A stretch of 63,135 bases of DNA, counting the filler, from Globobulimina sp. (taxonomy: Eukaryota): assembly GCA_003354225.1 (NCBI GenBank). It is 30 parts of 30 records of this genome, joined end to end, with 100 filler letters (N's around TTAATTAATTAA, not from the genome) between each part and the next. Parts side by side here need not be neighbours in the genome. Positions count along the whole stretch, not along the records: positions 35,850 to 37,856 come from PIVH01009797.1; 29 more parts are not named here. The stretch is one strand, 5' to 3'. The position numbers were made by a program, and so were the translations under genes. Shown here piece by piece: positions 3,406 through 59,023 of the stretch (within the stretch, counting starts at the first letter, position 1; every line of letters begins with the position of its first letter). A model generated the notes under the pieces. It ran no database searches. It was not told the origin of the DNA and saw only the letters and a program-made list of their open reading frames with translations.

Positions 3406-4220
3406 TTTACAACCTGATTTTTTTGCCTGTGCTCATGTATTATATTATGGTGGAAGTTCATGCAAAATATTTTGTTGGAAACTGTTTTTGTGCGCAAATA
3501 TTTGCGTCATCGCATCATTGGCTGTATATTGTGCGGCTTTGTATGTGATGATGGCGATAAGATTATTCGAAAAATTTTACGCGTTTCTTGCCACTAGGAG
3601 ACTTTTACCCACTTATTGTGTAGAAGTCGTATCTCGAATGATAACATTTCTCCTGCATTAATACACAATTTTGGTTGACAGTTATTTTACATTTGAGAGT
3701 TCTCCGCTGCATCTAAGATCGGAGCAAGTCATTTGTGTAGATATTGTTGAATTTGATTGTAAATATCCTCTTCCTTTAATTGTTATGGTTGAAGATGAAC
3801 GTATCGGAGAGTTACGTGTTGTATTATTATTGCCACATTCTTCTAGTTCTTTGCTTACTTTTCGTTTCTGATATGCATGATAATAGATTTTGGCAATCAT
3901 CGCTGCGATAACACCAATAATAAACGCAATAAATAACACTGTTCCTGATGTGGATGCTGGTGGATCATATATTGCCTGCTCAATTCAATCAGATCACACA
4001 TATGCAGTTTAAATAAGATATCATGCATACTCTAGGACAATTGATTGGTTTCATAATAAAATATTTAGAATTTATGGAAGAAAACGTGTGATCCATACAT
4101 TGTCTATTATCAATATGCCANNNNNNNNNNNNNNNNNNNNNNNNNNNNNNNNNNNNNNNNNNNNTTAATTAATTAANNNNNNNNNNNNNNNNNNNNNNNN
4201 NNNNNNNNNNNNNNNNNNNN

Positions 4221-5948
4221 GGCATTCAAGGCAGAATAACCTCCGGTTATAGTTTAGCTTTAATACAATACGAAATTGAGCTGAAAGTCAAAGAAAAATG
4301 CAAATCATATTTAAATAATTATAAAATAAATGGTCGATCGTATTACATTGATGATAATGGACAATTAGCGAAGAATATATTCAATTTAATTTATTTAAGA
4401 GTATACAATAAAATCGCTTTACAATTTGGATTAAATTTAAAAGACAATAAAACTCAATTAATAATTGGCAAAACATTGGAGGAATTATATGATTCTATAA
4501 TGTCGGACATTGAGTTTGTTAATACACTCAATATTGCGGGTGCCGACAAAATTGACTTCTCCAATTTGAAAATTCTGGAAAAAGGATCATTTGAAGTAAT
4601 GGGCGTACGCATTGGTAGTAAGAAAGACGTCGACAATTTTATGTTTGATAAAATCACAAAGTGGCTGAAAAACCTTAAAATGATTCAAAAACTCAAATCG
4701 ATTCATCATCAATACATTTTAATATCAAATTTTTATAATATTAATAAAATCAATTATTTAGCCAGGAACTTATCGTATTATGGCGTTAGTAAATGGCAAT
4801 TAAAATTCGATGAAATCTTCATTGGAATTCATAACAAAATCGTAGGTGAAAACATGTCAAATATCAATATAAAACATGCGAGTATTTCGTCTAAACGAGG
4901 TGGCCTAAGCATGCGCACAATTACACAAATTCAAAGCGCGGCATTCTTATCTTGCAATTCGAGCATCAATACTGTTTTAAAACGATTATTGGACAATGAT
5001 CTAATCCTATTTACAAATAAAAAGATGCAAAATATGAGAGATTTAGCTGTAAACAATTTTAATTCAAAAGTATTACCGCAATATCAAATCATTGAAGAAG
5101 GCAAATTAACGCAATCGGAGTTGATAGACCGTATCGATAAATCATATCTGAGTGAGTTGTATACTGTGTATGATTCGCGAGGAAAAGCAGCATTAAAATC
5201 AATCTCAAATTGGAAATGCGATTCGTGGTTGAAAGTAAATCCTGCAGTCGGTTATGGTGTCGATTATGATAATGTACAATTCAGATTATTGATGAAGCGA
5301 AGGCTAAATATGCCTATAATGAAAGAGGAAGCCGACTGCTTGCTATGTACAGCTAAATTAGATGTATACGGCGACCATGGTCTAAACTGCTCCTTTGGAC
5401 ATGGTAGAATCGGTAGACATAATTCTATGGCATGCGCGGTAATGGAAATCTGTAAAGGTGCCGGATTCAAATGTGAGTTAGAACTCAATGGCTTAGTTGA
5501 GGACTCAAGTAAGAAACCGGCAGACATTATGGTTTATAATTTATTCCCACAACACCACGGGGCCTTAGATGTTGGCATAACTAATATTGTCAGCGACAGT
5601 GGATCAAGAAACAGAGAAATTAAATTAATTAAAAGTGCGGAAAATAGGCTGGTTTGTGCCGACTTATATTACGCAACAAAAACAAGAAAATATGAAGCGA
5701 TTATTAATAATTCGGAGCTGAATTATAAATATAAACCACTCATTTTTGAATCAATGGGAGGTATTAACTATGAAAGTAAACAAACATTGAATTATATCAT
5801 TGGTGCAAAGTGTGTAGACAAAAACTTAGATCCTGATCAACAAAAATGTTTCATTTATCGGAAATTATTAGGTAAATTGCAAAAGGAGAATGCCGTTGCT
5901 ATATTGGAACATTATGCCCAATATTTTTATTTCAACGATCATCATTAA
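4221..5948 (+). mobile_element. Non-LTR retrotransposon ORF (RT C-terminal half, CCHC knuckle, restriction-like endonuclease), CRE-like, 5' partial
   Basis: Frame is open from the contig start: GIQG...YIDD (4344-4355)...FGLNLKDNKT, GGLSMR, CLLC...DVYGDHGLNC...RHN...E...KKPADI...ALDVGIT...K..KY...PLIFESMGG. Confidence 0.9.
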
Positions 5949-25311: not shown

Positions 25312-27319
25312 CGCATCGCTTATGAACCCAAGAGCTGATGGACTATCGAGAGGAAAGCCATACGCATTGGAAACATGTGATCGAAGTTGGAAACTCAGAA
25401 ATAAATCTAGAGAGTCATTGAAATATGCAAATGAAGCTTTAACAGTATACAAAGAAGCAAGGAAACGGATGGCAAACTTGAAAGGGAAAAAGAAGGAATG
25501 TACATGTGATAACCTATTCGCATGCGAGCAACAGAAAGTATATCCAAAATGGAGAGCAAATTCATAAACTTGTATTGTTAAATTTTTTTCTTTTGCCAAA
25601 AGTCGTTTGTTTTATCTATTTAAAAGTTACACTTTATTCGTAAGTAAAGTCCTTAACCTTACTAACTCAAAAAAACTGCTTGAACATACAACTAAAGGTA
25701 CGACAAACGAAACGGTTCAAACCTAAAAGAATGACAACGCAGCAATTCCAGAAAAAAAGACAAGAAAATTGGCAATATAGACATGCGCCAAACACTAACG
25801 AGCAATATGGATCAATAGAAAAGTATTGGATGATATTTAGTAAGATCCACGAAAGACCGATGGATGATTTCAGCGAAAATAACATCATAGATTATATGAT
25901 ATGGAATAAGGAATGTAAGAAAGCATTCGGATGGACAGCAATCCATTCACATCAATATGGATTAAAAGACATTGCCCTCAAATACAATATGAATATAAAA
26001 GTAGCAAAGGAGCATATGCCAAACCTGCACAATCATAAAATAGCAGAAAAAAAGGCAAAACCCTGACAAGGGTGGATCGAAACCGATCGATGAAACAATG
26101 ATCGAGGAATGGATCCAAATAATAAAAAGAGATGAAACTATGGATAATATAATACGGAGTTATATGCGAAGTGATATAACTCCAGTTATACCATAAGATA
26201 CCATCCAATATAATACTGAATCCATAATCCGAATATATGGATGATGTCATATGGATTCATAATGCGAGCGAATCAGAGAAACGAAATACTCGCTCCTTTC
26301 ATATAATAATTTTTTCTTTTAAAACCCTCTGTTGACTTACGACACCTTCGGGTAGTCAGACTAGTACAGGATGAGGTATATAAAGCGTTTCTGGCATAAT
26401 CCTTACCCCAGAAACACTTTGTAACCTGTCTAGTTATTACCATTCGTCCTACCCCCAATATCAAAGGTATCCATAAGTATAACAAAATTATCATGGATAA
26501 CAACGATAAGCATCGCATTTACAGAGATTAAGCGAATCAGCGAATATGCCTTCAATATGAATATCGCAAATAATTTATGTTACGACAATTTACAATTTGA
26601 ATATGACATTGGATCAAAGGATTGGAGCAAATCAACCTATATAATATGGCAAAGAAAGACTGGCAAAACACACCAATATGATTTTGCCAACAAACGATTA
26701 GAGTCAGCAATAATATGCCAATGCACAACAGCATCCAAAATATGTACTAAATGTGCTATAATGGAGCTGACAAAGGAAAGAAAACGAATTGAGAACAAGA
26801 ATAGAATCAATACACAACAGCAAATCTTAACTGATAATGGGAAGCCAATAAATAAATATATGATTGGAAGAAAAGTAAAAGAGCTATGTAGGAAGACCGG
26901 GCATGACCCGGCAAGACATACACCGCACGGATTTAGAAAAGGCGGTACACAAAAAGCCATTGCCGATGGAGTACCACTCCCTCAAATACAAAAGCAAGCC
27001 GATTGGAATGGGCCCGCTATGATATTTCGATATAATAATAATGTAAGTATTGAAAAGCAAATAAAAATAATGAAACAAACATATAATAAATTGTAAACAA
27101 GTGATTGAAACTATTTAAAATGATTATCTTGAAACAAACTAAAGAAACAGACTGGAAACGGATGGTATTATATGAAACTAAGGATAACGAGTTGTATATG
27201 AAGTGTTTCTGGGACCCAATACATACACAAACAAGTCCTAGAAACACCGAGTACCCTTCCTAGTAATTACCATACGTCCTAACAACACTATCTAGGTATC
27301 GCCGAATATAATTCGGAGT
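25312..27319 (+). mobile_element. DIRS-order (tyrosine-recombinase) retrotransposon 3' region: RNase H tail, disrupted YR gene, 3' repeat region
   Basis: NPRADGLSRG is the N..ADxLSR RNase H end. YR motifs KRISEY (R at 26533), GKTHQ, HGFRKGG, ADW...FRY. The YR N-terminal part is 25680-26145 with a +1 shift at an A7 run. Confidence 0.8.
26146..26471. mobile_element. ~325-nt non-coding, hairpin-rich insertion inside the YR gene
   Basis: Contains stops between in-frame YR segments (...KRDETMD / SISITKLSW...KRISEY); at least 5 stems; its ends match 27305-27319 and 27194-27300. Confidence 0.65.
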
Positions 27320-35849: not shown

Positions 35850-37086
35850 TCAGGAGAAGTATCAAATGCATACAAAGTATGGCCAGCATCATATTCTTCA
35901 TACGTAACTGGTCCTAGTTCGGAGCCACCTGTAGTTTGTCCAAATTCTTTGAACAGTCCATAATATGCGTCCATGTAAATATTTTTTCTATAATCCATTA
36001 CATATCCGCCTCGGTATGGTTTGTCAACAGAGTTTACACGGACAACAATGTTATCAACATTATAAGGAATAAAGTTTAATCTGTTTTCCTTATAGTCTCC
36101 ATTATATGCTGTTTCTGTCAACAGTCCAACTACTACTCTTTTTGGTAGAACTCCACTTGCTATAGTTACAGGTCCAAAATAACTAAGTGTTTTTTCATGT
36201 ATCATGTGTAACAAATCTCTGTGAATGTATGGATACACAGAATTTGATACTGCTGTTTGTTTTGGTCTTATCCTACCTACTTCCAATTTGGCATCTTCAA
36301 TTTCAATAATATATTCACGTTTTGGGTTGGCTGCAGGCCAATTAGCAAGGATGCATGCTTTTGGATCATGAATAAAAAAATTTAGACCGATATCGACACC
36401 ATCAAGAATTGGTTTGTAGACCTTTAGACAATCGATTAAGATTTGTCCTTTCAATTCACAGGTTGATGATTTATCTGTTCGATTGGCTCTTTTGTAAGAA
36501 CCAGGGTTAAGTGTAGCGTTGCCCATATTAACTAAATTAAAACCTCCAGGTTTGTCTCCATACCAAAGCGCTGATGTGGATAGTGTATCCTTTGTTGAAT
36601 GAGGAACATGGAGCAGTAGCGATAAATATGCAAGATGTTGATACTGTTGATGGGTTGTGTAAACTGTTACACCATTAAAATCAACACTTATGTCCTAGAA
36701 ATATTACGATTTACTCTGCAATATTATCATCTCATAGAACCAAACCTTAAACATTGTGTAAAGGAAACCATTGTAAGGTGCAACATTTTCGCCTTCCTCC
36801 AGTCGTTTCAGCTCTCCTCCATCTCCTTTTCTCCAAATTTTAAATTGTAAGTAAAGGACGATATTATTAGTATCAATAAATTCTCCTTTTATTGACCTTA
36901 TTAAATATTTGAAAGGTGCATCAGATCCTCGCAACGGTAGTTTTGTTATGCATGGCACCAATTCTATTGTATAATTTTCTATCATATCCTTGCGTATTTT
37001 TTCATTAGGGATCTAAAAAATAAATCTATTTTTGCGGATATGTTTGATTAATTCAAACCTACCAGATTATTTGTCTTTACAACCAT
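35850..37086 (-). CDS. Polinton/adintovirus-type major capsid protein (double jelly-roll), introns 37013-37062 and 36695-36745, 3' partial
   Basis: Spliced product MVVKTNNL|IPNEKIRKDMIE...EFIDTNNIVLYLQFKI...VAPYNGFLYTMFK|DISVDFNG...LAYLSLLL...LWYGDKPG...ELKGQILIDCL...LPKRVVVGL...AYNGDYKENRLNF...AYYGLF...EYDAGHTLYAFDTSP follows the Maverick/Polinton MCP motif order. Confidence 0.85.
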
Positions 37087-37437
37087 TTTGTAGATTGAAC
37101 TATTTCTTAATTTTCTTTGTCGGTGGTTTATATGAACTTTTATCTGAACCTTCACTTGATTTGGGATATTTTCGCCTTTTAAAGTTTGTTTTATTTAGTA
37201 ATGTTATAAAATAAACAAAGTGTGACAATCTATATTTTAGCAGATCATCACCGCGTGGTAGTAGCATGAAGTAAATTAACAATGATCATCATGTGATTGC
37301 TAGGCTACAGTTGCATCATCATTTTTCATCACAAAACTACGATGAATGATGATTGCTCATCATTTTGTTATAATGAATTTCTTTTATTAATACTTCATAC
37401 TGAGGTATTTGCGGTAGGATAGACTGATGTTTTTAAA

Positions 37438-37856
37438 ATGACTGATTCGGTTTACATGTACTTATCAAATTCTAATGATGTCAACAATACGAATAAAGCT
37501 TCTGCTGTTAATTTTATCCCATTTTATTCACCGCTACTTAACCAAGGTCAATGGAAAGTTGCAGCTTTGCATGGTAAAATATCTAAAACATGGAACACCG
37601 TTATAAATGCTAGCTGTAAACTTGAACAGATAACAAAGGATGGTGAAATAATAACTATTGATCTTAACATAAATGATCAAAGGTTAGTAAAAGTGTCAGA
37701 AATGACTGCAAAATTGCGGGAAGATTTGTCGAATAAATTAAAGGATATTGATCAAGAAACTGATGAGTGGGTAAAATTTGGAGGGTCTGGGCCTGCTTCC
37801 CGGAAGATTGCAGTGCAACCAGGAATCAAAATTATATTCTCTAATTCTTTACAGAA
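37438..37856 (+). CDS. Polinton/adintovirus-type minor capsid (penton-like) protein, 3' partial
   Basis: VYMYLSNSN...N...NF...PLLNQGQWKVAAL...KTWNTV resembles the FYxTLPSNS..N..F..LxGxWEVAL..PxTWxN penton N-terminus; divergent from the MCP gene on the same contig. Confidence 0.65.
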
Positions 37857-38487
37857 NNNNNNNNNNNNNNNNNNNNNNNNNNNNNNNNNNNNNNNNNNNN
37901 TTAATTAATTAANNNNNNNNNNNNNNNNNNNNNNNNNNNNNNNNNNNNNNNNNNNNATCAAAATAAACAATATTGTCTTTTTCGGTACAAATATCGGGAA
38001 AACCATAGAAACTATCAAAGCCATAAACACGCTTGTCAGAGCCGAGTTCCTTTAGTAGCAATGCAGTTGATAAAAGAGATTTACCATTAAGAGTTGAATT
38101 AGTTGCTCAGGATATCCTGAGTAGTAATAAGGCTGAAGCAAAGTAGTATGTAATGAGGATACAGTTCTTAGTAACGCTATATCCTGGCACCTAAAGCGAA
38201 TATGCGTGCAGCAAAGGTAATAATAAAAAGCATTATAATTTATGAATAATTAGGTAAAAAAAGAATCATCACACAAAGAGAGAATGAAATCAATGAATAG
38301 AAATATATACTATATACTATGTAGAAAAGCACAAAAAAATTTAAAAATTTAGATGGTAAATGCCTGAAACAAACAGATGATCGAATACTATTTTACTATA
38401 TAAAAAAAACAACGTAAGAAAAAAATTTAATAATTTTTATTTAATATATTAACAAATTTATTTTAATTTAATTTAACGTAATTTAAT

Positions 38488-39963
38488 TTACTGCGACCAT
38501 TGTGGAGTATGGGCGTAATTATAATAATTTTCCTCCCAAACACCGCCTTGATCGTTTTTATTGATGCGTTCATTGTCCATGTCGCCGTTATGCGGTTTCC
38601 ACGGAATCCAAAATTTGCCGCCAGTCGGTTTGTTGCGGAATCGGTCCATTTTATCCTGTTTGGTGTTGCGAATAATTTCACCTAATCGCATTTTGGGATC
38701 AGCCACAACGGGAACTCGGTAATAATGATTGATTTGAATGCCGCGCGCATTGTACACTGGCTCGGGATGTTCGGGCTGCACATTGTAATCAGCAGACACG
38801 CCCTTCGATAAGATCTCGAATTTATGCTTCTTGCCAGCTCGCAATTTGGCTCTGATGGCTTCGGGAATGGGCACTTTGGCGCTGAAGTGATACCAGCCCC
38901 ATTGGCACATTCGGCGCTCTTTTTTGCGTAAATCGGCCGGTTTATACAACTCTGAGCCAACGAAGGAGTCGCCGCCATCTATGCTCACATCCACGCGATG
39001 CACATTGCGGCCGCCGCCACTCCACGCCACGCCTTTCACCTCCACGAACTCCATGTTCTTGCCGCCGATGGTCGCGTTTGGCGGCGGGTTGCAGACAATG
39101 GATTGGATCGGCTGTTCCAGGGCAATGGGCGCGATATTTGGCTGCAAACCCGATTTGGGGTCGTGTCGCAAGTGCACTTTGTCCGCCTTCTCCCATAAAT
39201 ACAAGTCATCCTCGAACGAGATATCGGGCGAAAAGCCTCGGTACGCGTTCTCGTGCCATGGCTTCATCGAAGTGTTGTACTCCAACGACACCTCCTTGAT
39301 CCATTTGCAGTTTCTGGCGCCGGCAAAGCCAGGAACTAAGGCTCGAACTGGATAGCCATGGTCCCGCGGCAGAGGGAGTCCGTTCATCTCGTACGCCAAT
39401 AATACGTCGCCGCGCCCATCCACCGCCTTATCCAAAGGGATCGAGACCCCGTACTCCAAGCCAGTTTCGTCCGTATCCGTGCCCGTAAAATGAAAATGAG
39501 CGCCAAACCCAGTTCCCTCGCCATACGGCGTGTTGCCCAAAGCCAAGTTATCGACATCCAAACCGCAGTCCGCCAACACGTCTCGCAATCGACAGCCGCC
39601 CCATTTCGCGCACGATATGGCGCCGACCACCCAATGCGGCCCAATAAATATCTGATTGATGCCGGAGCCGTCGCGTTTGGGTAAACCATGGAAGTCTTCT
39701 CGCCGATTACCAGCACATTGCAACGGAGACACAACTTCGTGTTTTTTGAATTTCGTTTTCAACTCTTTTAATGAGTACGTTTTGCTTCTTTTGATGCCTT
39801 GGCCTGTTATTATATTGTATGTAGTTATTTTATTATAATTTTATATTTATTTAGACATTCTTTACCTGCATGCACTTCAAACTCATACTCGTCCGCATCG
39901 ATGCGTGGCACTGGTAAATGGTTGCGAGTATAATGTAAATGGTTCGGCGTATAATATTTCTCA
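38488..39963 (-). CDS. SUOX: Sulfite oxidase (Moco and dimerisation domains), 5' partial; intron 39804-39865
   Basis: YTPNHLHYTRNHLPVP, LQCAGNRR (Mo-ligating Cys), LAYEMNGLPLPRDHGYPVR, GARNCKW, KGVAWSGGGRNVHRVDVSIDGG. Confidence 0.9.
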
Positions 39964-40786
39964 NNNNNNNNNNNNNNNNNNNNNNNNNNNNNNNNNNNNN
40001 NNNNNNNTTAATTAATTAANNNNNNNNNNNNNNNNNNNNNNNNNNNNNNNNNNNNNNNNNNNNTACGTCGGAAAAACACATTTTAAAATTCAATTGGAAT
40101 GTTCATTCGACTGTAAGTTCTAATAATTATAAATCAATTATTATTTATCAACATTTGTTTATGGTAATTCGTGGAGGAATGATAAGTTTTTATGATGTAA
40201 ATATAGATAAATACTTTGAATGTAATAACATTTTGCCTGGTTCGCCAACTGCTATATTTTGTGATATTGTAGACACAAAAGATAATTATATACATTTTTT
40301 GGGTGGGAAAGCAAATGAATCTGAAGTGTATCACATTAAATTCAATTTATCCCATTTATTACCAAAAGAATTGATTAATTGTTATAAATATAAATTAGTG
40401 TATCGCTATGTAAATGGATTAATTACAGAGTTTAAATTGAATGAGAAATATCCACAACATTTATCACAGATTATATGGTCATATTGTCAGTTATTGTGCT
40501 ATTGATTTTTTTATAAAATTGTTTGTGTGACATTTCCCATTATCTTTTAAAGTTTTTTTCACTTAATCTGCAAAATTACTCAAGTGATCATGACACCCAA
40601 AAACGGGGTCTCACGAATATAAATAATTTAAGATGGATGGAAAAGATGAAAATAAAGAAGAGAAAAAAGAGGAAGAAAACAAACAAAAAGATATTCATAT
40701 TTCCGAGAAACGGCAACAACGCAAGTATACGTCTAACATAACTATAATCATTCCAACATAACAAAAACATATACAAAATATATAGC

Positions 40787-42070
40787 AAAAAAAAAAACAA
40801 TAACAACGTTTCAAATACCAACCCCTAACCCATCAATATCCGATCCATCCGTCAAACCAAAAAGGCTCAAATACCAAGTCGCGCAAAATAAGGGAGAGAT
40901 TTTCGAACTATTCACATGGTTAAAACCGACAAAAATATTAGGTCGAGGTGCCTATGCCACCATTTGCGAGGTAATCGATCAACGCACAAATAAGAAATAT
41001 GCGATTAAAAAGAGTTGCAATGTATTCAGTGCCGATATCGATGCGCGCAGAATATTGAGGTATGCTTTGAACGTACAAAAAACATCTGTTTATCAAACAT
41101 TTATCAAACCTCTGTTTTATATTTGTATGAACTGTTTTTATAAGTATCTGACTATTAAAATGACTATTTTTTATACGGAACTCAGGGAAATTAAACTGAT
41201 GATACATTTCAATCATCCAAATGTAATGAGTATATGCGGCGTAATACCCCCTACGCCGCAGGAAAGAGATACGTTCGATGAGTGCTATTTGATTATGCCT
41301 AAAATGGACACGACATTATCAAAAGTCATTAAATCGCCACAGAAATTATCTGAGAAACATATCCAATATTTTGTGTATCAAATTGCGCGCGGATTGGAAT
41401 ATATGCATTCCGGAGGCATCATTCACAGAGACTTAAAGGTATAGCATTACTTACATTCATTTGTGTTACTTACATCACTGTCATACCCAACCAATATAAG
41501 CCCGACAATATATTAGTAAATACTGCAAATTGTAAGGTGAAAATAACAGGTTTGCGCCTATACATTTTCGTATAGCATTTCCATCATATTTCCCCAACAG
41601 ATTTTGGATTGGCGCGTGGGGTCTTAATCGATGTAGATTCGCCGCAAAAACTGACAGAATACGTAGTAACGCGATGGTATCGTGCACCGGAAGTGATGTG
41701 TTGTTCGCAATTATACGACTATCAGATTGATACGTGGGCGTTGGGCTGTATTACCGCAGAATTATATACGCGGAAAGCTATATTTCAGGGAAAAAATCAC
41801 ATCGAACAGTTGCAATATATATTTTATTTCATGGGCACACCCACGGATTTGTCGTGGATTACGAGCGAGGACGCAAAGGAATGGATTGCGAACATAAAAC
41901 CCAAGAAAGCGATGGATTTATGCAACATAATACCCAATGCGGCGCCCATAGCGCAGGATTTCATTGCAAAGCTATTGATTATTAATCCGCATAAAAGGCC
42001 GGATATCAGCACCGCCATCAAACATGTATGGATGAAGGAGTTTGCCATTGATAAGGATTATGTCAAGTTT
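40787..42070 (+). CDS. ERK-type MAP kinase (TEY), partial; introns 41060-41185, 41439-41500, 41550-41600
   Basis: LGRGAYA, YAIKK, RRILR|EIKLM, HRDLK|PDNIL, IT|DFGLARG, LTEYVVTRWYRAPE. Confidence 0.92.
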
Positions 42071-42171
42071 NNNNNNNNNNNNNNNNNNNNNNNNNNNNNN
42101 NNNNNNNNNNNNNNTTAATTAATTAANNNNNNNNNNNNNNNNNNNNNNNNNNNNNNNNNNNNNNNNNNNNT

Positions 42172-55189: not shown

Positions 55190-55348
55190 ATTGGCAATAA
55201 TTGAATGAGATTGACATAGCATATGACTTAAATGATTTACTTGATTTGCTGAGTCTATTAAACAGATATCAATATAACAATATATTAAACAGTCAAAGGT
55301 GCCATCCTCTGGCCTTACTAAGGGGGCCTAAGACTTACATGTTTTTTA

Positions 55349-56707
55349 TTGATACTTAAAAAACACAAAGTAAGACAGAAAAAGTGGAAAAGCCCGGTAT
55401 TTGATTTAGTTCCGGCAATATATCGGGATATATTAATATTGACATCGAATGGTGGGGTAAAAGCATCGTCAGAAGGAACATACCAAGATAACTTCTTAGA
55501 ATTTTGGAGAACTATGAGGAGACTAAATATACCGGATAAGTGGGTATGGAATTTCCCGATTGACGATGCGATATTACAAATATATATAATAAACTGTTGT
55601 TTTATTAGAAAACGACCAAATTGTTATAAAACGATCAGAGGTAAGATGAGAGCAATTGATTTTGTGGCGCAATTATGTGGAATAGAATCATCGTGGTCTA
55701 CCAATGCATCATTGGATACAATATTAAAATATGTAAAAAAGACAAATCCTGGCAAAGGATGTGACACTGTGCCGGCAACTGTGGATGTTGTACTAAATAT
55801 AGTCAGATATATATTAGAATTTAAAGTATATTATCGGCTAAACTTTTTGTCGAAATATGAAAGGAAGCTGAAGGAGAATTGGTTATCATTTCCAAAGATT
55901 TGGATTGATAAACAAACACTATATTGGTATTGCTTTGCGATGTCAATATTATTTGTAGGCATCTTAGGATTGAGAGGGGCGGAGTGCTACGAAAACAAAG
56001 ACAAACAATATGAAGGATATGGGATTTACATATCAGATTTAACATTCTTTTGGAAGGAAGAAGCAACAAATAAATTATATGCAAGCAATAGGTACTCATT
56101 GGCGTGGGAACATTTGCATCATCTTCGGATTAGATTAAGACACTCAAAGTCCGCAACCAAAGGACAAGATGTCTTCCTGCGTTTAGGTAGAACGAATCGA
56201 GAGATTGATCCGGTGATAATTATGTATCATATATATAATTTACAGAGATATGATTTGAGGAAGTTATATAAATATAGATTAAGAAAAAGATTTATATTCC
56301 AAACTCCCCAAAGAGATTGGACATTGACAGCAGTGAAAAAGAATTGGGCTGTGATGATTGCGGAGTTAGGCTTTATTGAGGCTGAAAAATATAGATTCCA
56401 TGGATTACGCAAAGGATTTGCGACAACATTAACACAAAAAGGAGTGCTTAGAAGTATCATAGCATTTGCAGGTAGATGGAAGTTGTTGGCAGCTATTGAT
56501 GACTACATTATCCATACACAAAAAGAAATGTTTGGTCTGGCATTTATATACTTGTATGGAAATAAAATAAATAGCGAGGCAATAGATTTAGATTTGGCAG
56601 AATGTAATATGGTGAAGGATTTGCCGAATAATAAATCGTCTGTAATATCGATGCAGTTTCTGAAAGACTATCAGAAACAATTAACAATGGATAGCATTGA
56701 AGAATGA
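55349..56707 (+). CDS. Tyrosine recombinase of a DIRS-order retrotransposon
   Basis: GLRGAEC (R), HSKS (K), HGLRKG (HxxR), AGRW...DDYI (W, Y); immediately downstream of the RNase H. Confidence 0.9.
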   Translation: MILKKHKVRQKKWKSPVFDLVPAIYRDILILTSNGGVKASSEGTYQDNFLEFWRTMRRLNIPDKWVWNFPIDDAILQIYIINCCFIRKRPNCYKTIRGKMRAIDFVAQLCGIESSWSTNASLDTILKYVKKTNPGKGCDTVPATVDVVLNIVRYILEFKVYYRLNFLSKYERKLKENWLSFPKIWIDKQTLYWYCFAMSILFVGILGLRGAECYENKDKQYEGYGIYISDLTFFWKEEATNKLYASNRYSLAWEHLHHLRIRLRHSKSATKGQDVFLRLGRTNREIDPVIIMYHIYNLQRYDLRKLYKYRLRKRFIFQTPQRDWTLTAVKKNWAVMIAELGFIEAEKYRFHGLRKGFATTLTQKGVLRSIIAFAGRWKLLAAIDDYIIHTQKEMFGLAFIYLYGNKINSEAIDLDLAECNMVKDLPNNKSSVISMQFLKDYQKQLTMDSIEE

Positions 56708-56917
56708 AAATGAATTACGAATTGGACAATAGTTGATTAGTTTAATTAGATTATTGTTGGTTTTTACGATTTGGATATAATTCCTGAAATGTATTATTAT
56801 TGTGATGGGATTATTTGNNNNNNNNNNNNNNNNNNNNNNNNNNNNNNNNNNNNNNNNNNNNTTAATTAATTAANNNNNNNNNNNNNNNNNNNNNNNNNNN
56901 NNNNNNNNNNNNNNNNN

Positions 56918-58923
56918 TTCTTTAACCCGACTACAACCAACATATAAACTAGGCATTGTTAATGGAAGAATTCTTGTACAAATATTTGTAGTTGAATTAA
57001 GGGATAAAATTGTTGATTTGACTGTTTTTCCTTGCATTTTATGAAAAGTTACAGCTAAAGCTAACTCACATTCGTGCATTTTACATCCTTTTTCTTTACT
57101 TTTACTTTTACTGTTTTTATCTTTGAAATGTGAAACTTTGGCTTTAATTGCAACAATTTTTTTACCAATTTGAATCACTATGTAATCAGGTTGTGAAACT
57201 TCATGTATTTTACCTGGTTCTAAAGTATCTAAATCAACAGCTTTTGTATTGTCTTCCCAAACAACATCAAGATAAATACCTTCGCTACCTTTACCAACAC
57301 CTAATTTTGTTTCAAGTGATTCATTTAATACACATTTTGCACCACGTGCGAAATATTTAATTAACTCATCATATACACCTTCTAAATCTTGATAATTTAC
57401 ATCAGGTACGGAATATTGTCTAAAACCAACTTTAACTGGACAAATCCAACATATAATTGGTTGTTTTTTTCTGATTCCAAAACTACGAATTTTTTCTGTT
57501 GTAAATCTATAACGTTCAATATTACCAGAAACAACTACTGGTGTATCACTCCAATTTATTTTTTCGTTTTCAAAATCATTTTCTGATAATATTATAAATT
57601 TTGATAACCATTCGTCAGTAATTGGATGGTCCACTTGTAAATTACGTAATTGTGATAACCAATTATCAAATTCTGGAGTAGCTCGCTCTTGTCCTTCTAA
57701 AATAACCATTTGAAATTTGGCAAATAATTGAGCTCCTACATGATACGCTTTATTTGGCATACGTAAACCGAGTGCTAACATGACGGCAGCTTGATATAGT
57801 GCTGGTTTATTCAAATATTCCTCAACGGGCGGAAATTGATACATATCACCAATAAGTAAGACACTTAATCCTCCAAATAACAGTTCATTTTCTAACGCTA
57901 TTTGTAAATATGTATTTATTTTGACTAATGTTACAGGTGTTAGCATGCTTACTTCATCTATAACTAACAATTCAACACCTTCACAAGCTTTTACAATTTT
58001 TGTTTTTGTCCTTGCACTTATCGTTGTTTCTGTAAAATTAGGATAATTTTTTCCCAATCCAAGAATATGGTTAATCGTGTCAGATTTTAATTCTGCAGCT
58101 GCAGAACCTGTTGTCCCAGAAAATATTGCTCTCATTCCTAACAATTCAGCTAATGTTCTAGCTATTGTTGATTTGCCAGCACCAGGTGGACCTTGCATGA
58201 ATACCAAAAATTGTCCATCTTTTCGATCTATTTTTCCGACTGACATCTTTTTGATTTTACTTAATAAAGTTAGCATTTTCTCTTGAGAATCTGACAATTT
58301 AATTTCTTCCTTTTCTTTAAATTCAATAATATCTTCATCATCATCGTCAATTATCATAGGATCAAAATCATATTCCTTTTGCTCCAATTCAACAGTTGAC
58401 TCATCGTCTAAAAAACATTTAATTGCGTTTTTGCAAATTTCAAATGTATATTTCTTGAATTTCATTGGCACCTCTCGTTGTCGTTTGTTTGCTTTCTGTA
58501 AATGGTTATAAATGTCAACTTGTTTATTAACATATACAGTAGCTAGGTGTCTATTTTTTTGTTTTGTTGTTAAAAAATTATCTTTACCAGTGCCATATTT
58601 TTCACGGATTTTATCACATATATTTTCTAATAAATCATATTCATTGGTAATATCTTCAGTTTTTTCAGATTTGTTTTTATTACGGTAAGATGGTTCTGCG
58701 TTAGTGTTATTATCTAATGTATCAGCCTCTAGAAAACGCCATTTAGTTACTAACGTTCTTTCTGACATTTGTTGACGCATATTATCAACCATATTTTGAA
58801 ATACACATGAGATAGTATATTCATAACTATTTGTACTATTTTCAAAATCATTAAAGACTTTCCAAAAATTATCCCAAGATTGTTCTTCGTTCCAAGGTAA
58901 AATATTGTTATATGGTTCTATTG
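56918..58923 (-). CDS. Pif1-family SF1B DNA helicase, partial, probably mobile-element derived
   Basis: GPPGAGKS, VIDEVSM, FGGLSVLLIGDMYQFPPV, QER, AVTFHKMQGKT, LYVGCSRV; no intron seen. Confidence 0.9.
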
Positions 58924-59023
58924 NNNNNNNNNNNNNNNNNNNNNNNNNNNNNNNNNNNNNNNNNNNNTTAATTAATTAANNNNNNNNNNNNNNNNNNNNN
59001 NNNNNNNNNNNNNNNNNNNNNNN

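Follow-up and report, generated by a model that had tools for sequence, protein, structure and literature searches.

Polintons, or Mavericks, encode a double jelly-roll (DJR) major capsid protein (MCP) (Krupovic, Bamford & Koonin 2014, PMC4028283), and the accessible text of that paper contains no occurrence of intron or exon. As far as the accessible parts of the sources state, intact vertebrate Mavericks have "conserved and intronless ORFs" (open reading frames; PMC8097293), nematode Mavericks have intronless core genes, both capsid genes included, with introns in their cargo genes (10.1101/2022.07.12.499685), and a large survey of endogenous viruses of protists relied on gene calls from a prokaryotic tool, on the grounds that these viruses "do not contain introns" (PMC10120064). 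Here, we analyzed a stretch of 63,135 nucleotides (nt) from the Globobulimina sp. (Eukaryota) assembly GCA_003354225.1 (the window), in which one contig, PIVH01009797.1 (positions 35850-37856), carries an MCP gene of this class whose coding sequence is split by two short GT-AG segments, together with a divergently oriented partner gene. Both segments recur at identical positions in two related loci, the exons are under purifying selection, and an uninterrupted relative reads exactly across both junctions, which supports the view that they are genuine introns of a capsid gene.

Like the MCPs of Polintons and Mavericks, the protein is a DJR protein of ~440 amino acids (aa) by the model described below, belongs to a large eukaryote-associated family, and has a small gene, putatively for a minor capsid protein, as its neighbor. 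It differs from them in that the MCP coding sequence is split by two introns in all three loci for which DNA is available, while the partner gene is uninterrupted in the related locus L001. An earlier note on this contig, made from the sequence alone, had stated that Polinton capsid genes are generally intronless, in agreement with what PMC8097293 and 10.1101/2022.07.12.499685 say, in their accessible parts, of intact elements.

Other systems combine capsid genes with splicing in different ways. In late messenger RNAs (mRNAs) of adomaviruses the leader comprises several exons, and the splice acceptors directly precede the ATG, which leaves the capsid coding sequence uninterrupted (10.1101/341131, accessible part). 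The late capsid genes of adenoviruses and adomaviruses thus resemble ours as DJR capsid relatives (adomavirus LO7 is among our best fold matches) expressed via host nuclear splicing, as predicted here, but in the window the ATG lies in an eight-codon exon and the second intron falls inside the first jelly-roll. According to the accessible text, dinoflagellate Maverick-Polinton-like proviruses with capsid genes carry introners, which are spliceosomal introns (PMC11957031 / PMC12166617), inserted recently by repetitive intron-generating transposons and mostly younger than, or of the same age as, the other copies in the host (PMC11957031). The likeness is that of spliceosomal introns inside Polinton-like elements that still encode capsid genes, whereas the putative introns of the window are unique sequences at fixed positions, kept through deep divergence; that introners interrupt the MCP coding sequence is not stated in the accessible part of PMC11957031. 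In the literature searched, we found no report of conserved introns in the coding sequence of a Polinton-type MCP, though one may exist; the accessible parts of PMC8097293, PMC8502044, 10.1101/2023.08.22.554363, PMC11957031, PMC12220804, 10.64898/2026.07.28.741278, PMC6431247, PMC3671162, PMC10120064, 10.1101/2022.07.12.499685, PMC5718144, 10.1101/341131, and PMC4409740 describe none.

Structure of the capsid gene and its partner

The capsid module fills exactly one contig of 2007 nt with a GC content of 33.7%, within the range of the other contigs in the window (28-44%), and both of its genes are cut by the contig ends. For comparison we used L001 (3249 nt) and L002 (1839 nt), metagenome contigs that are the only related loci found in the metagenome_contigs collection and the basis, with the window, of all estimates of the ratio of nonsynonymous to synonymous divergence (dN/dS) and of all intron comparisons, as well as P0011, a protein of 443 aa that is uninterrupted at both junctions. 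The features of the contig are the following:

37063-37086, minus strand: MCP exon 1, ATG plus seven codons, a basic N-terminal tip (first exons of eight codons also in L001 and L002)
37013-37062, minus strand: predicted MCP intron 1, 50 nt, GTAGGT...TTTTAG, phase 0, 24% GC, with an in-frame TAA and a length that is not a multiple of three
36746-37012, minus strand: MCP exon 2, 89 codons (P0002), aligning to residues ~13-102 of P0011; dN/dS of 0.13-0.15
36695-36745, minus strand: predicted MCP intron 2, 51 nt, GTTTGG...TTCTAG, phase 0, 29% GC, interrupted in frame by TAA and TAG (L001 and L002 each have an intron here too)
35850-36694, minus strand: MCP exon 3, 281 codons (P0001), running to the contig end; dN/dS of 0.12-0.15
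37087-37437, no strand: divergent intergenic region between MCP and partner, aligned with those of L001 and L002
37438-37856, plus strand: 5' part of the partner gene, 139 codons (P0003), a putative penton/minor capsid gene, 51% identical (72/140) to the ORF of L001

The earlier note had joined the three minus-strand pieces into one MCP by removing segments of 50 and 51 nt, both in phase 0 and the second with an in-frame TAA, and had placed a penton-like gene divergently at ~350 nt on the same contig. Its coordinates and sequences were all correct, a TAG being also in frame in the second segment, and the partner ORF starts 351 nt from the capsid ATG. In the window the second junction reads ...LYTMFK|DISVDFNG..., as against ...FLYTMFK|DVMVDFNG... 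in the uninterrupted P0011, while at the first junction P0011 reads ...KTNDM|FVAEN.... Comparison with L001 indicates that exon 3 is cut ~65 codons before the stop. We also considered a translation start at an internal Met of exon 2, without intron 1, and rejected it because the eight-codon exon and its GT-AG intron are found in L001 and L002 too, and the spliced N termini of these loci match the contiguous ...NDM|F... of P0011.

The intergenic region has a single strongly conserved noncoding block at 37231-37252 (GGTGATGATCTGCTAAAATATA on the minus strand), corresponding to ~1073-1094 in L001 and ~66-87 in L002, ~110-140 nt upstream of the capsid ATG. Its consensus, GGTGA(T/C)GAT(C/T)T..TAAAATATA, is unique in the window and was matched in 0 of 100 shuffles. 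The block is a candidate for a shared, TATA-containing promoter element.

Fold and family of the two proteins

The capsid protein belongs to a large family. A word-indexed protein search gave, among 277 candidates, 11 close homologues of exon 3 (59-86% identity), all on short contigs and none with a Pfam domain, and HMMER retrieved 1,459 cluster representatives at E <= 1e-3 (263 at <= 1e-10 and six at <= 1e-30), the best 150 matches being mostly of 420-460 aa. Ten of the 11 close homologues are truncated ORF calls of 198-349 aa that start inside exon 3 or at its start, and P0011 alone is full length, which bears out the expectation of the earlier note that ORF-based screens would miss such genes or call them broken. 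The window MCP is 55% identical to P0011 over residues 21-382 (362 residues). A search for longer proteins found no fused forms, and scans of viral_contigs with P0020, P0011, and alignment A3, of metagenome_contigs with P0020, and of genome_contigs (prokaryote genomes) with A3 found no relative; the family members P0020 and P0015 are carried by contigs of 19 and 22 kb.

The AlphaFold2 model of P0011, made from an alignment of 66 sequences, had a predicted local distance difference test (pLDDT) score of 90.8 and a predicted template modeling score of 0.89. Of the best 500 Foldseek matches in the PDB, 240 had E <= 0.001; the Sputnik MCP came first (3j26_A, E 8.2e-17, TMq 0.63), followed by chains of PBCV-1 Vp54 and by the mavirus MCP (6g44_A, E 1.3e-12). 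Against BFVD there were 111 matches at E <= 0.001, led by an uncharacterized protein of Cotesia sesamiae bracovirus (E 2.4e-24, 23% identity, TMq only 0.38), which we take to be derived from a Maverick, with an Adintovirus sp. protein, adomavirus LO7, and virophage MCPs among the other leading matches. The Pfam family PF21738 (DJR-like_dom, double jelly roll-like domain) was matched by four of the 66 aligned sequences, all of them more distant relatives (best E 1.1e-5), and in a language-model atlas P0011 lies nearest to clusters of eukaryotic hypothetical proteins, in one of which 24% of the members carry PF21738. Given these fold matches, domain hits in relatives, and atlas neighbors, we assign the MCP to the DJR major capsid proteins of the Polinton/adintovirus/virophage structural class, with the fold modeled on the relative P0011; the double jelly-roll expectation of the earlier note was thus confirmed at the level of that model.

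Although the virophage MCPs (Sputnik V20 and mavirus MV18) are the best matches among solved structures, their sequence identity is only 9-12%, and searches of PHROGs and of PDB sequences with the MCP gave nothing meaningful. Virophage genes are expressed by the machinery of the giant virus in the cytoplasm and are not known to contain spliceosomal introns.

The partner gene recurs in L001 as a complete, uninterrupted ORF of 261 aa in the same divergent position, and eight homologues of 177-265 aa were found in the database. One of them, P0173, lies on an NCBI contig of 2754 nt, equal in length to the one with the MCP homologue P0008, and the pair is probably together there as well. Because the partner recurs in this way, MCP and partner are, as judged from these sequences, a conserved module. 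The identity of the partner is less clear than that of the capsid protein. The model of the 261-aa protein, from nine sequences, had a mean pLDDT of 55.3, with residues 54-171 confident and the N- and C-terminal thirds, where the jelly-roll parts are expected, below 50; the single jelly-roll fold predicted in the earlier note thus did not emerge from it. The weak matches of this low-confidence model included three penton proteins of adenoviruses (E 0.016, 0.17, and 0.20) as well as one minor capsid protein of a virophage (E 0.26), and an atlas search with the partner returned Preplasmiviricota clusters, with a cluster of Sputnik V18/19 at rank 22. The full-length protein had no Pfam match and no meaningful match in PHROGs or among PDB sequences, and we regard a match of P0003 to PF18003 (E 4.6e-4), which fell below the cut-off, as a chance hit. 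A penton role for the partner is plausible.

Interruptions shared among related loci

The proteins of L001 and L002 are 66-70% identical to the window MCP and 84% identical to each other, and both genes have the layout seen in the window, with a 24-nt exon 1, an exon 2 of 267 nt (the same length in all three loci), and an exon 3 of ~1040-1060 nt. The two interruptions, of 53 and 50 nt in L001, 47 and 48 nt in L002, and 50 and 51 nt in the window, lie at identical phase-0 positions. All six have GT-AG ends, lengths of 47-53 nt, and a GC content of 19-42% (36-39% in the exons), and the retention of any of them would break the reading frame, since four are not multiples of three and the other two contain in-frame stops. 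Between copies, both exons have dN/dS values of 0.12-0.15 with no stops or frameshifts, at synonymous divergence (dS) values of 0.66-2.2 that are at or near saturation, and the interruptions are barely alignable (29-48 positions, 47-71% identity).

The junctions agree with the contiguous form of the protein. The spliced N terminus of L002 is MGRKKNDM|FLTEN..., matching junction 1 of P0011, and 126 of 163 family proteins extend at least 60 residues upstream of junction 2. Moreover, in 31 of the 35 relatives with a significant exon 2 match the parts aligned to exons 2 and 3 abut with a gap of 0 residues. The shared positions in three loci, the purifying selection acting on exon sequence, and the exact junctions of an intronless relative together support the view that the two segments are genuine spliceosomal-type introns, for which splicing is predicted. 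Both are old in the lineage, inherited through a divergence that saturated the synonymous sites under purifying selection on the protein. The earlier note had asked whether other copies would lack the segments and whether intron positions and selection agreed among copies; neither L001 nor L002 lacks them, and all three loci share both positions.

To place the intronless form, we used a maximum-likelihood tree of 28 of the 175 proteins, namely every member of the close clade that is 200 residues or longer and 15 more distant proteins, rooted at the midpoint. A clade of 13 rows (support of 100/99) unites the three verified intron-bearing copies; the window copy falls on one side of it, and L001 and L002 fall on the other. 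Inside it, the intronless group of P0011, P0163, and P0165 nests beside P0010, P0012, and P0014, whose ORFs begin one residue past junction 2; this combined group is sister to L001 plus L002 with a support of 84/93, which is not strong. Taken at face value, the introns would have been present in the ancestor of the clade, and since P0011 is nested among intron-bearing copies it would lack both of them precisely, as a sequence derived from spliced mRNA does. P0011 would then be either an environmental transcript, and as such direct evidence of splicing, or the product of a double intron loss mediated by mRNA/cDNA.

More distant members (P0023, P0073, P0097, and P0109, as well as P0016 and P0024), with ~25-32% identity, have called ORFs that start within a few residues of the intron 2 site. 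As the first four start exactly at junction 2, this intron may be far more widespread, or their ORFs may merely be cut by contig ends.

Some information on variation came from the one sequencing run that covers the contig (X1, with 0.45 of its words; kind unknown). Over shared stretches of the 35850-36850 region it contains two or more variants with 93-99% identity to the contig, two of which cover intron 2 without gaps. In a third X1 contig the match to exon 2 extends as far as the GT, and from just inside the donor end of intron 2 the sequence is different, as expected of a paralogue with a diverged intron. Among the contigs of the window, searched with MCP and partner queries, there was no second MCP or partner locus.

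The earlier note had also called the introns host sized. In two other genes of the window we placed four introns by motifs and ORF continuity, all of them GT-AG:

41060-41185, plus strand: intron of the MAP-kinase-like gene, 126 nt (motifs and ORF continuity)
41439-41500, plus strand: intron of the same gene, 62 nt (motifs and ORF continuity)
41550-41600, plus strand: intron of the same gene, 51 nt (motifs and ORF continuity)
39804-39865, minus strand: intron of the sulfite-oxidase-like gene, 62 nt (ORF continuity)

The capsid introns fit this range of 51-126 nt, from a sample of four. The MAP-kinase-like host gene (40737-42115, plus strand) was assigned from the HRDLK and DFGLAR motifs read in the sequence and not by a search, and the second gene is a long ORF on the minus strand of contig 37957-39963 (44% GC), labeled by eye as sulfite-oxidase/molybdopterin oxidoreductase-like.

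The window is made of ~30 unrelated contigs of 2006-2010 nt, ordered by length and separated by 100-nt spacers (N...TTAATTAATTAA...N), so gene adjacency across the spacers carries no synteny information. Four further long ORFs look mobile-element-like by eye (55322-56704, 26434-27093, and 4173-5945 on the plus strand and 56873-58975 on the minus strand). From their motifs, we take two of them to have tyrosine-recombinase-like C termini (...HGLRKG... and ...HGFRKGG...) and one to be a P-loop helicase resembling PIF1 (...GPPGAGKS...); one possibly has a reverse-transcriptase-related C terminus. An Rfam scan of the window found no family.

Nature of the element

We consider the contig to be probably the capsid module of a Polinton/Maverick-like (Preplasmiviricota-type) virus-like element, a placement made by the capsid gene on a 2-kb contig. 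Such an element would reside in an AT-rich eukaryote whose introns are short, or would replicate in its nucleus. Its two genes would be transcribed divergently from the ~350-nt intergenic region with its one TATA-like block, the first yielding a DJR MCP of ~443 aa and the second a partner of ~261 aa, probably the penton. The capsid pre-mRNA would be processed by the host spliceosome, with intron 1 following the eight-codon first exon in a disordered N-terminal arm and intron 2 lying inside the first jelly-roll. A living endogenous or nuclear virus-like element, the episomal variant included, is in our opinion the likely source of the contig.

Several observations weigh against this reading. 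The conserved introns, purifying selection, and conserved gene pair are equally expected of orthologous domesticated host genes. No Pfam family was found for the window exons or for P0011, even at E <= 1-10, and the threshold of PF21738 was not reached. Foldseek with the partner model gave no match at E <= 0.001, all matches being at E >= 0.015, and it is the position of the gene, along with weak leads, that suggests a penton. A search of sequencing runs listed no RNA run with this stretch, and no joined (spliced) form was present in three runs of unknown kind (X1 to X3, of which X2 and X3, from the same sample, have next to none of the words and no cover of the contig). The X1 variants could be alleles, nuclei, or mixed individuals instead of paralogues. 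Finally, L001 has ~610 nt past the MCP stop with no long ORF, unlike the densely packed interior of an element.

The same observations bear on the foremost alternative, i.e., that the pair was exapted from an ancient Polinton and now consists of ordinary host genes, vertical orthologues in related hosts; we think this unlikely. Vertical host inheritance would lead to host-type introns and purifying selection, as found here in intron positions kept across saturated dS and in dN/dS values of 0.12-0.15, and the divergent pair is conserved together with its intergenic motif. Furthermore, intact Mavericks have intronless core genes in the accessible parts of PMC8097293 and 10.1101/2022.07.12.499685, so that introns hint at the status of a host gene. 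Neither a polymerase nor an integrase turned up on any of the three loci, which span 2-3 kb and were not the object of a search aimed at Polinton proteins, and the stretch past the MCP of L001 is, as said, devoid of long ORFs. Conversely, the several variants in one sample, together with L001 and L002, which are 84% identical, have unrelated downstream sequences, and come from contigs with the same name prefix, fit a multicopy family better than a single orthologue, and an intronless form is nested in the clade. No locus extends far enough to tell whether host genes flank the pair.

The flanks are compatible with both settings. L001 and L002 reach 114 nt past the partner gene and 200-610 nt past the MCP, and none of the three loci includes an element end. 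Besides short, weak inverted pairs, a repeat scan of L001 found only a tandem pair of 60 nt (2873-2991, 85% identical) that lies ~240 nt beyond the MCP stop. The 200 nt downstream in L002 are unrelated to those of L001 and turn GC-rich. Such unlike downstream sequences could be element ends lying in different surroundings, or host DNA.

A further alternative, to which we give a rather low probability, is an exogenous (episomal) nuclear double-stranded DNA virus, or a Polinton-like virus of another organism in the sample, in place of an integrated element. No integration junction is visible on the contig, in an assembly made of ~2-kb contigs, close relatives are found only on short metagenome or other short contigs, and the nearest structural matches are free viruses. 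Nevertheless, the GC content of 33.7% falls within that of the other contigs, the size and GT-AG form of the introns match the host genes of the same window, and the viral_contigs scans with P0020, P0011, and A3 gave no relative. A decaying pseudogene, with the two segments as chance insertions, is very improbable, since, despite their stop codons and the lack of a joined transcript in X1 to X3 (kind unknown), three loci that differ at most synonymous sites and are not assembly duplicates (66-84% protein identity) are interrupted at the same two sites by segments of 47-53 nt with GT-AG ends in six of six cases, the exons are free of stops and frameshifts, with dN/dS of 0.12-0.15, and the junctions match uninterrupted relatives exactly.

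Returning to the virus-like element, we tentatively propose, at a little under even chances, that a sublineage of Polinton-like viruses or elements has kept two MCP introns over the long term and depends for virion production on nuclear RNA polymerase II and the spliceosome. Surveys of endogenous Polinton-like viruses generally find genes with ORF callers made for prokaryotes or viruses. A capsid gene under purifying selection that needs two splicing events contradicts the working assumption that these elements are intronless, and the case offers a clean test of whether such a pair belongs to a living endogenous virus or has been domesticated. ORF-based catalogues truncate such capsid genes and, if the intron is widespread, may systematically undercount them. 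If such lineages are common, capsid-based censuses and calls of intact versus degraded elements would be biased, while intron content would become a marker of nuclear expression dependent on the machinery of the host and may also mark how long an element and its host group have coevolved.

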